A DNA stretch of 64,000 bases. It comes from Candidatus Hodarchaeota archaeon (lineage in GTDB: Archaea > Asgardarchaeota > Lokiarchaeia > Sigyniarchaeales > SOKP01). This document shows positions 51,652 to 54,900 of this stretch, in pieces. The notes beneath the pieces were generated by a model. The model did no database searches. It had not been told where the DNA came from and was given only the letters and a program-made list of their open reading frames with translations. Positions within the stretch are counted from its first letter, which is position 1, and every line of letters starts with the position of its first letter. A program made the position numbers and the translations under genes. The stretch covers positions 59,903 to 123,902 of the forward strand of contig JBHLKM010000014.1 of the NCBI GenBank assembly GCA_048886685.1, read 5' to 3'.

Positions 51652-51789
51652 ATTGTAATATTAAGATTTAAAAAAAAGGAAGAAAATCACACTTAAAAGA
51701 CTTATGGAAAAGTGGATGTTAATAATTTAAGTCTCTTCATTGAAAAAGGATTTCAAGCTTTAGATATATAGTTAATAGGAAGCAATCCT

Positions 51790-51833
51790 ATTGTCCATCT
51801 TTCACTAGCATTTGTTGAAAGATATCATTCAAT
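51790..51833 (-). promoter_or_regulatory. eukaryote-like SECIS element (kink-turn hairpin)
   Basis: mRNA sense: AUUG-A-AUGA-U-AUCUUUCA-ACAAAUGCUAG-UGAAAGAU-G-GA-CAAU. Helix I AUUG/CAAU, AUGA...GA core, perfect 8-bp helix II, AAA in the loop. Confidence 0.75.
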
Positions 51834-52313
51834 TTATCTAAAATTTCTTTTAATTTTAAAGTAGTGAGAATAAGATTCATGGTTTTTCCCATATTTTTGC
51901 ATGATGATTTTTTTGAATGTACCATAATCTAACCTTTCTTTCATAACATCAGCTCATCAATCAGCATGTACAACTATGGTTATATTACTATTGGGATATA
52001 GATTGGTGTTAATATCATCCTGTAAATTCATAAATTCTCTATTTGGACCATAAGCATTTACAGCACAATCTTCATAAATTCCATTTTCTTCACCATCCCA
52101 AATTAATTGTAAATAACTGAATATAAATCCTTTAAAGATTGGAAAAATCTTATTTTCTGGTTCGGAATATACTTGTTTATCTATGGCACTAAGCGTGTCT
52201 ACTATAGTCCCATTATCATCTATATTTATCTCGTATTCTAAGCCCTTTGACAATCTTTTCTCAGGGTCAGGTGCAAAAATTGTTAGGTTAACTTTCTTAA
52301 TTTCAATAATCAC
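51834..52313 (-). CDS. putative selenoprotein, MoaD/ubiquitin-like beta-grasp fold with tandem UGA-UGA (codons 119-120)
   Basis: The track ORF 51957..52313 ends HAD-TGA-TGA, the frame stays open for 39 more codons to TAA at 51834-51836, and a SECIS-like hairpin follows at once. Confidence 0.65.
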
Positions 52314-52347
52314 CCCAAAATAATTAAAATAATAAATTTACTAAAGT

Positions 52348-52638
52348 CTATATAAGTCCTTTAGCTTTAAGAAGCTTTGGTAGTTCTCTCTTTAAAATAA
52401 ATGATGAAGAAAACTTTTTCTCTCCATCAACAACAATACATTTATTACGAAGATTGAGATTTCGTGCTTCTTCTGAATTAAGATTCTTCGTATCATAATC
52501 AATATGTTTAATATAAGGTGTGAGTTCGATGAAAACTCGATTCATAAACTTGTCCCACTCACACGCGCAAGCATCTAAAGGAACATAAATGTCTACTTTC
52601 AGTTTTCCGTTATTTTCTTCTTCACTCATATCAAACAC
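52348..52638 (-). CDS. small thioredoxin-fold-like protein with CxC motif
   Basis: VDIYVPLDACACEW ... CIVVDGEKKF; in the ars operon. Confidence 0.7.
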   Translation of the reverse strand: MFDMSEEENNGKLKVDIYVPLDACACEWDKFMNRVFIELTPYIKHIDYDTKNLNSEEARNLNLRNKCIVVDGEKKFSSSFILKRELPKLLKAKGLI

Positions 52639-52941: not shown

Positions 52942-53979
52942 TTATTGTAATTCCCAAAAACCTTGTTTTTTAAGATATCGTCCTAAATAAACAATTGAAA
53001 GCATCACAGGAACCTCCCAAAAAAGACCCATTGTTGTCCCTAAAGCCGCCCAAGAACCAATTCCATAAATAGCAATAGCAGTAGCAATCGCAATTTCGAA
53101 ATGGCTGGAAGAACCTATTATAACTGTGATGATTGCCTCTCTGTACCTCAAGTTAGTGAGTTTTGTAATTAGAATATTGTATCCAACAACAATCACAAAC
53201 CCTACTAAGAGAGGAGTCGATATTAATAACAATAGATCTGGATTACGTATCAAAACATCACCATTTAATGAAAAAAGGACGACTAAAGTTGTTAACAACG
53301 CAATAATAGATATCTTGCCCACAATTGGACGGTATGTTTCATTAAACCATTCTTCACCCTTAGAAGATATAATCATTCTTTTACTTATTATTCCACCCAA
53401 TAACGGGAGCCCGATAAAAATAAATGTCGAAATTAATAAAAGAATCCAATCAATTGGAATACTTTTAATACCTGTTAGCAATGTTACCATAGGAGCATAA
53501 CCAAATATTATTGTTATCGTATTTAGACTTGTATTAATTACATTTTGCTCTTGGTTACCTTTTGCCATCAAACCCCATACCAAAACCATTGCAGTGCAAG
53601 GAGAACTAGAGAGTAGTATAATTGCAACAGTTAATTGCTTTATAGTTTCAGAGCTGCCAGGTAAAAATATATTCACCATCGCTAGACCTACAAATGGAGC
53701 GATAAGCCAATTAGAAATGATTGTTAAAATTATCGGTTTAGGGTTTCTACCTAATTTCTTCAACTCAGAAGCTTGAAGATTCAGCATTGCTGGATACATC
53801 ATTAAAAATAAACAAATCCCTACAGGCACAGAAATTTCACCAATTTTTAAAGAATCAATAGTTTCACTGATCCCAGGGATAATTTGAGATAATAGAATTC
53901 CGATAAGTATACAAAGAGCAACCCAAAGCGGCAAGAATTTCTCAAAGAAGCTAATTCTGCGACCTTTTTCTTTACTCAT
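52942..53979 (-). CDS. acr3: arsenite efflux transporter Acr3
   Basis: SFFEKFLPLWV, MMYP, NWLIAP, PCTAMVLVW, SHFEIAIA, EVPVM. Confidence 0.95.
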   Translation of the reverse strand: MSKEKGRRISFFEKFLPLWVALCILIGILLSQIIPGISETIDSLKIGEISVPVGICLFLMMYPAMLNLQASELKKLGRNPKPIILTIISNWLIAPFVGLAMVNIFLPGSSETIKQLTVAIILLSSSPCTAMVLVWGLMAKGNQEQNVINTSLNTITIIFGYAPMVTLLTGIKSIPIDWILLLISTFIFIGLPLLGGIISKRMIISSKGEEWFNETYRPIVGKISIIALLTTLVVLFSLNGDVLIRNPDLLLLISTPLLVGFVIVVGYNILITKLTNLRYREAIITVIIGSSSHFEIAIATAIAIYGIGSWAALGTTMGLFWEVPVMLSIVYLGRYLKKQGFWELQ

Positions 53980-54145
53980 ATTATTTCAGTTTTTATTTAT
54001 TAATTTTAAAGAAATTAAAAATTATCTTAAATAATAAAATTTTTATCCAAATAAAAATTTATTGATTTGAATAAGGTTTTATAAATTTAATTATCTTCTA
54101 TAAATATTGGATAAATGAGAATTGAATAATTCAATAGTGTTAGAA

Positions 54146-54532
54146 ATGAATATTAAGCATGAAAGGGAAATTAAGACAAAATTAATAAAATGTGAGGATA
54201 TTGAGAATCCTGATTTACATTTCAATCAATTAAGAGAATTAGGAAATAATATGATTCAAAATACTAGTTTTGAAGATTTATCTATATTCCTTAATGCGTT
54301 AGCAAATAAAAAGCGTCTTATGATAATAAATATTCTAAAAGAAAAAGATCGTTGTGTATGTGAATTAGAAGCGGTACTAGATGAGTCCCAGCCATCGATT
54401 TCTCATCATTTAAAAATTCTTGAAAGTGCTGGGTTAATTAGGGGTTGGAAAAAAGGCAAATTCACTCATTATGATCTTATAGAGAAACAGATTAATTTGA
54501 ATCTTGAATTATTAAATCAAAAATTAGCTTAA
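54146..54532 (+). CDS. arsR: ArsR family arsenic-responsive repressor
   Basis: ALANKKRLMII, CVCELE, SQPSISHHLKILE; divergent from acr3. Confidence 0.9.
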   Translation: MNIKHEREIKTKLIKCEDIENPDLHFNQLRELGNNMIQNTSFEDLSIFLNALANKKRLMIINILKEKDRCVCELEAVLDESQPSISHHLKILESAGLIRGWKKGKFTHYDLIEKQINLNLELLNQKLA

Positions 54533-54651: not shown

Positions 54652-54900
54652 ATGGCAAAACTAGTTCCAGATACAGAAGAAAGTTTGAATGTGTGTCGAC
54701 AGTTCTGTGGACCCTGTCCCTCATTCAAACTCCAACAACTTAATGAATTTGAACCAAATGCTCTATTTTGCTCAAGAGGTCCATCTTAAAAGCCAAAAGA
54801 CCAAATAGAAAATAAGGGTTGCAGTTGTTTTAGTTGTGGATTGTTCTCACAATATGAATTAGAAAAAGGTTTTTTCTGCATGCCATGGGAACAGAAATAA
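54652..54900 (+). pseudogene. DUF2769-like Cys-rich protein with an in-frame TAA (54787-54789)
   Basis: MAKLVPDTEESLNVCRQFCGPCPSF...ALFCSRGPS*KPKDQIENKGCSCFSCGLFSQYELEKGFFC; the Cys pattern continues across the stop. Confidence 0.75.

Follow-up and report, generated by a model that had tools for sequence, protein, structure and literature searches.

At the end of a run of arsenic-resistance genes in this archaeal genome, one open reading frame is cut by two adjacent TGA codons, raising the question of whether they end the protein or are read as selenocysteine (Sec, U). Within the window, by which we mean the whole 64,000-nt stretch of DNA that was analysed, the minus-strand frame runs through ...VVHAD, TGA (51959-57), TGA (51956-54), 39 sense codons and TAA (51836-34). 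The preliminary description interpreted this frame as a selenoprotein. We reach the same view on five lines of evidence, namely the invariance of TGA-TGA, the constraint on the tail behind it, the SECIS element, the Sec machinery and the existence of Cys homologues. Judged from sequence, the gene very probably encodes a selenoprotein of about 155 aa that ends at TAA 51836 and in which both UGAs are decoded as Sec by machinery of the archaeal/eukaryote type with the help of a 3′ lokiSECIS. We hold the explanation as a whole with nearly the same confidence, but the function proposed within it with much less (see below); Sec insertion, the ligand and the roles of the partners are inferred, and there is no RNA, ribosome-profiling or proteomic evidence.

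Features of the selenoprotein locus and its neighbours (positions in the window)
Feature	Position	Strand	Remarks
Selenoprotein gene	51834..52301	-	ATT 52301 (probable start) to TAA 51836-34; 155 aa
Same gene if GTG 52313 is used as start			159 aa
TGA-TGA, putative Sec115-Sec116	51954..51959	-	invariant in 136/136 loci; Cys column in Bathyarchaeia homologues
Predicted beta-grasp domain (SAMP1/CysO/MoaD-like) with insertion, residues 1-114	51960..52301	-	fold model, best Z 7.2 to CysO
C-terminal helical extension, 39 codons	51837..51953	-	pN/pS, pLDDT; kept in Cys homologues
Ribosome-binding motif GGGGTGAT	52309..52316	-	conserved in orthologues, ahead of ATT/ATG
Type I lokiSECIS: kink-turn core, 8-bp stem, 11-nt A-rich loop ending AG	51790..51833	-	
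Second small hairpin directly after SECIS	51775..51791	-	<= -4 kcal/mol in 86/111 loci
Thioredoxin-fold protein, 96 aa, invariant CxC (AC-A-C motif)	52348..52638	-	
Cys/His-rich protein, 72 aa	52654..52872	-	found next to 12 loci only, all of the window's subtype
Acr3-family arsenite exporter	52942..53979	-	TIGR00832 273 bits, cut-off 282.8; only one found in genome
ArsR/SmtB regulator, divergent, CVCEL motif	54122..54532	+	

All 136 distinct loci of the family carry TGA-TGA, and neither codon is ever replaced by TAA or TAG. These are dereplicated loci, counted separately from the 136 genomes given below, as some genomes have paralogues; among the raw family matches the pair is present in 212 of 216, the remaining four being N-terminal fragments. 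Among 2732 long ORFs of this genome, 71% end in TAA and just 4 in TGA-TGA, so that the pair's invariance across the family excludes a chance origin. The terminal stop behind the tail varies (TAA 91, TGA 32, TAG 12). A general reassignment of TGA was ruled out, since 396 long ORFs of the genome end in it. Three variants of the motif occur: C-U-U, the commonest, in 71 loci including all distant lineages; HAD-U-U, the window's own, in 59; and U-G-U-U, with a third in-frame TGA, in 6. In a gapless alignment the Cys of C-U-U is matched by the window's first Sec. A tree calculated with the Sec residues masked separates HAD-U-U (support 90/83) and U-G-U-U (100/100) each by a single branch from the surrounding C-U-U rows; that they arose from C-U-U forms is only suggested, as the direction depends on a midpoint root.

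If the pair were a double stop, a protein of 118 or 114 aa would end at Asp, and the tail would be a separate 36-aa peptide starting at ATG 51944. Databases do annotate the short form, and 57 of the 59 loci of the window's subtype have an ATG three codons past the UGAs. However, 27 of the 71 C-U-U loci lack ATG, GTG or TTG in the next eight codons, and the Ala-Asp codons that separate this ATG from the UGAs vary synonymously only, which together make a separate downstream peptide unlikely. A double stop would, moreover, be expected to drift to TAA and leaves the SECIS unexplained, and UGA-free homologues hold the tail in one polypeptide. We give it almost no credence. Hardly better placed is a protein in which Sec is inserted at the first UGA and the second acts as stop, the shorter of two products that the preliminary description had left standing. 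Tandem Sec insertion is likely to be inefficient, and such a form may arise as its by-product, but the second UGA is never TAA or TAG, coding constraint begins with the first codon past it, and the U-G-U-U subtype requires at least two read-throughs in any case. Of the two products, full read-through is the one we favour.

Consistent with full read-through, the 31 codons past the UGAs have pN/pS values of 0.25 and 0.30, similar to those of the 30 codons before them (0.23 and 0.37), whereas shifted frames of the tail give 1.0-1.3. By this measure purifying selection acts on the tail frame beyond the TGAs. UGA-free relatives of about 130 aa, three of them named Bathyarchaeia, emerged when 1.8 billion proteins were searched with a profile; a single conserved Cys occupies their Sec column, and a homologous helical tail follows. 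MAFFT places this Cys at Sec115 and hhalign (prob 97.5) at Sec116; the C-U-U subtype likewise has Cys at position 115, and no homologue has Cys at both Sec positions. In one sequence nested among the Sec forms (P0140), Cys-Val-Ser replaces the UGAs, the tail remains in frame and no SECIS is matched, so that UGAs and SECIS appear to have been lost together, albeit in a single case. The tail constraint and the UGA or Cys retained at this position (136/136 loci and the Cys homologues) are what had been proposed as support for recoding.

The hairpin at 51833-51790 has the anatomy first described for it. Its AUGA (51828-25) starts 125 nt after the second UGA; the lower helix is AUUG/CAAU, the 8-bp stem pairs 51823-16 with 51804-51797, GA lies at 51795-94, and the 11-nt loop starts with ACAAA and ends with AG. 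A lokiSECIS is defined by AUGA, a stem, an 11-nt loop with 5′ adenines and a final (A)G, and then GA/AA (PMC4989117). The window's hairpin fits this definition, the published 9-bp stem corresponding to 8 bp plus a U.G pair here. On its own it folds only modestly (z -2.05), and Rfam gave no match above gathering scores, the weak C/D-box matches reflecting the kink-turn. A strict SECIS pattern has five matches in the 4.4 Mb genome, including this hairpin, and at 107-144 nt past the UGAs it occurs in 125 of 134 loci, compared with 22 of 526 control windows (4%). Four of the nine loci without it are upstream members of tandem paralogue pairs (L132, L134, L182, L083), and a fifth lies ahead of another SECIS-bearing selenoprotein gene; hdrA-vhuD are likewise tandem selenoprotein genes with one SECIS (PMC4989117). 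In 75 sequences compared, 98.3% of the upper stem is paired, against 42-54% for slid controls, and each of the 8 pairs shows two-sided changes; a shuffle test of this covariation is inflated by the relatedness of the sequences.

We also built a model, R1, from the SECISes of the new family alone. After the window's own hairpin, four of its next five matches in the genome lie behind three hdrA-frhD pairs and one hdrA. In 20 distant loci it gave 7 matches and one probable chance match (L212); the loops of several distant SECISes are longer or of type II. A covarying lokiSECIS at 125/134 loci, and a model that retrieves the hdrA/frhD elements, are thus what scoring of the hairpin yields. Of the other SECIS-like matches, the one on C7 follows an unrelated ORF with one TGA and is not that of PrxL, and the one on C5 is a chance match. 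A strong SECIS match (31 bits) behind a ~75-aa hydrophobic ORF with GGG-U-VCA (G000:C2 near 362246-362520, minus strand; L221) may mark a further unreported selenoprotein.

Two further observations concern the 3′ ends of these genes. The 32 family loci that close the tail with TGA include 13 in which this TGA is the UGA of the SECIS core, and nearly all tail-ending TGAs lie within 30 nt of the SECIS, presumably too near for recoding. The second small hairpin might serve 3′-end protection or termination, but its role is unknown; similar short inverted repeats seem to trail the hdrA/frhD SECISes of the genome, and a promoter/terminator scan gave chance-level matches only.

If both UGAs are decoded, the genome should hold the Sec machinery, as the preliminary description also reasoned. 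tRNA-Sec, SepSecS and two TGA-containing SelD score above cut-offs, whereas the candidates for EFSec (237 bits, adjoining SepSecS) and a PSTK-like protein (136 bits) fall just or well below theirs. The two selD genes are in tandem (G000:C13 56676-59010); both contain Sec and both have a type II-like SECIS. SepSecS was detected in 131 of the 136 family-bearing genomes. None of the findings that had been named as refuting the selenoprotein has therefore emerged: no orthologue ends with TAA or TAG at this position, the hairpin is conserved and covaries, and Sec machinery is present.

Of the phylum's 398 genomes, profile A1 detected the family in 136, every one of them in the window's class, Promethearchaeia/Lokiarchaeia (136/159, 86%), although related genomes are not independent counts; the named homologues belong to Promethearchaeota. 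Outside the class the same profile found no member, including in about 90 other Asgard genomes with SepSecS, but distant members could escape it. The family is present in Promethearchaeum syntrophicum (DSAG12_01295), Lokiarchaeum ossiferum (NEF87_003065) and Ca. Harpocratesius repetitus, all annotated to the first UGA only and, in the two cultured species, as a truncated hypothetical protein. One genome with three typical Lokiarchaeia copies (L134, L148) has a title naming an actinobacterial MAG that looks wrong, as GTDB places it in the window's family.

The 159-aa ORF first reported has the correct frame, TGAs and TAA, but probably not the correct start. GTG 52313 falls inside the ribosome-binding motif GGGGTGAT, and at the position of ATT 52301 orthologues carry ATG or have an in-frame stop directly upstream. 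On these sequence comparisons the true start is probably ATT 52301, giving a 155-aa product with Sec115-Sec116. ATT and ATC appear to be used as start codons in this gene and its orthologues, which would lead gene callers to choose the GTG within the motif.

The protein had been proposed to be ubiquitin/MoaD-like, with the UGAs in register with Gly-Gly. Pfam and NCBIfam gave no family match for it or 19 relatives, ThiS/MoaD profiles included, and there was no sequence match in the PDB. An AlphaFold2 model has pLDDT 90 overall and above 90 over most of the 39-codon tail. Its best structure matches are the beta-grasp proteins SAMP1, CysO, MoaD and Urm1, with a transcobalamin beta-domain tied (Foldseek best E 3e-3 to SAMP1; VIA Z 7.2 to CysO, 84 aligned, rmsd 3.1, and 6.8 to SAMP1); Z scores up to 7.2 are middling. 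A fold search with one database Cys homologue gave only leads below 0.9, one of them a ThiS-like cluster. Where the model aligns with MoaD, MOCS2A and CysO, the match stops at residue 116, opposite the last Gly of each protein; this bears out the proposed register, though the ends of such ranges are approximate. The model thus predicts a SAMP1/CysO/MoaD-like beta-grasp with U-U at an internal Gly-Gly position.

These alignment ends would also suit a MoaD-type carrier or ubiquitin-like modifier whose cleavage after U-U lays bare a C-terminal Sec-Sec for E1-like activation. As made, however, the protein cannot act as such a modifier: a free C-terminal Gly-Gly is absent, with U-U or C-U in its place followed by 32-42 residues, and it is this folded tail that sets it apart from Gly-Gly modifiers. 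The tail is conserved and predicted to form folded helices, and no E1/ThiF or JAMM protease is among the recurrent neighbours. We regard cleavage as very improbable and take U-U to be internal.

The selenoprotein gene is the last of a run formed with acr3 and the genes for the 72-aa Cys/His and 96-aa CxC thioredoxin-fold proteins, with arsR divergent. The acr3 operon context, noted from the start, holds here and at many other loci: among 96 with enough flank, acr3 lies within 5 kb in 69, the CxC protein is adjacent in 68, an arsR-like gene in 63 and arsC in 13. The link is strong in two host families only, the second also joining the gene to acr3/arsR (L232, L235). Of 20 distant loci, 2 are near acr3 and 3 beside aldehyde:ferredoxin oxidoreductase (AOR), and several adjoin CDF transporters. 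In P. syntrophicum, L. ossiferum and Ca. Harpocratesius, acr3 lies elsewhere on the chromosome, and no arsenic-related neighbours were found beside the Bathyarchaeia Cys homologues. The association with arsenic genes is confined to some lineages, and As(III) binding is an inference without binding data. The genome has no ArsD (PF06953 not found) and no clear ArsC. Two neighbouring ORFs deserve mention: L112 and L113 encode the 72-aa Cys/His and CxC proteins as a single fusion, and in the window a small Cys-rich ORF after arsR (54652-54900, plus strand) is broken by an in-frame TAA (54787-89), either as a pseudogene or through an assembly error.

We propose that the Gly-Gly position of a MoaD/SAMP-like protein was turned into an internal loop in which two or three selenol/thiol groups stand side by side (U-U, C-U-U or U-G-U-U) and over which the helical tail forms a cap. 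This loop would bind As(III), and would buffer it or pass it to Acr3; the selenoprotein would thereby take the role of the missing ArsD, and the CxC thioredoxin-fold partner would keep the selenols reduced or release the metalloid. That the protein binds soft metals or metalloids in general is inferred, and we think it reasonably likely. For the narrower role in the acr3 operons, with As(III) as ligand of the loop and the CxC partner keeping the loop reduced, which is inferred too, we see slightly less than an even chance, because other distant members have AOR, CDF or unrelated genes as neighbours and in the cultured species acr3 is not near the gene. A further point against arsenic is that the loop of the window's subtype offers two selenols only, whereas three ligands are usual for As(III). 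The complete scheme, in which a sulfur-carrier scaffold became a two-to-three-selenol As(III) trap that feeds Acr3, is reset by the CxC thioredoxin and depends on UGA-UGA decoding without SBP2, is offered as a tentative possibility.

In the chief rival explanation, the selenoprotein may be mainly a redox protein with a selenenyl-sulfide or diselenide loop, or a carrier of sulfur, selenium or metal for tungsten or Fe-S enzymes such as AOR, that entered ars operons later. We rather doubt this, yet it cannot be set aside. Distant members adjoin AOR with a 4Fe-4S subunit (L227, L228, L234) or CO dehydrogenase/prismane (L245), the fold is that of sulfur carriers, a thioredoxin-fold partner adjoins, and presence in 86% of the class is above expectation for an accessory resistance gene; U-G-U-U also recurs in the algal thioredoxin-fold PDI_e (PMC7539508). 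On the other hand, AOR is beside only 3 of the 20 distant loci, acr3/arsR linkage occurs in two host families, and a second multi-Sec protein of metal-binding type (GDCCVxC) joins the same operons.

This GDCCVxC-domain protein lies directly behind the U-U gene (L167:2175-2390, plus strand; also L048, L147, L174), matches NF041374 at 56.6 bits (cut-off 40), and has four in-frame TGAs and its own lokiSECIS. It occurs in 26 of 159 genomes of the class, including cultured species, and all 27 matches carry four TGAs. It is outside the seven Asgard families and is listed elsewhere as a one-Sec bacterial family.

The new family itself is not among the seven Asgard selenoprotein families of Huang 2024, and a 2026 catalogue of 119 prokaryotic families has no UU motif and no MoaD-like family (PMC13188914). 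We found no description in the literature of the locus tags or of an Asgard selenocysteine ubiquitin-like arsenic protein, subscription papers being incompletely covered. The suspected novelty therefore stands for a beta-grasp or Acr3-linked family but not for Sec-Sec itself, which is known as GUGUU in algal PDI_e (PMC7539508). As far as the 2026 catalogue goes, this is the first prokaryotic adjacent Sec-Sec and the first MoaD/ubiquitin-like selenoprotein. The Asgard selenoproteome of seven families gains one as widespread as the established ones (86% of class genomes), overlooked because published searches began from known families. Decoding of consecutive UGAs with a eukaryote-like SECIS and no SBP2 makes a sharp test of archaeal Sec insertion against termination, and as the gene is present in two cultured Asgard archaea, their proteomes can test read-through directly. 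If the proposed function is true, it adds a selenium-based route of arsenic detoxification in the closest prokaryotic relatives of eukaryotes.

The recoding system is known; the family, its fold and its motif are new. ArsD, like the selenoprotein, is small and soluble, sits in an arsenite-efflux operon and has clustered chalcogen ligands, but the selenoprotein has a different, beta-grasp fold, Sec for Cys and no ArsA partner in its operon. With the MoaD/ThiS/SAMP1/CysO/Urm1 carriers it shares the predicted beta-grasp fold, having U-U where they have Gly-Gly; it differs in lacking a C-terminal Gly-Gly and in its 39-aa folded tail and ~25-aa insertion. The Lokiarchaeal selenoproteins HdrA-VhuD/FrhD, VhuU/FrhA, PrxL and SelD (PMC4989117, PMC11227280) have the same SECIS type right after the stop, tandem genes with one common SECIS and several Sec per protein, whereas the beta-grasp fold, adjacent Sec residues and ars-operon context are particular to the new family. 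Algal PDI_e also has consecutive Sec-Sec, and its U-G-U-U spacing equals that of one subtype here, but it is eukaryotic and thioredoxin-fold, and no homology is claimed. Finally, the bacterial SaoC, SaoL, MbdU and HgcA (CU motifs; PMC13188914) place vicinal Cys-Sec in heavy-metal or metalloid neighbourhoods, though with a bacterial SECIS and one Sec per motif.
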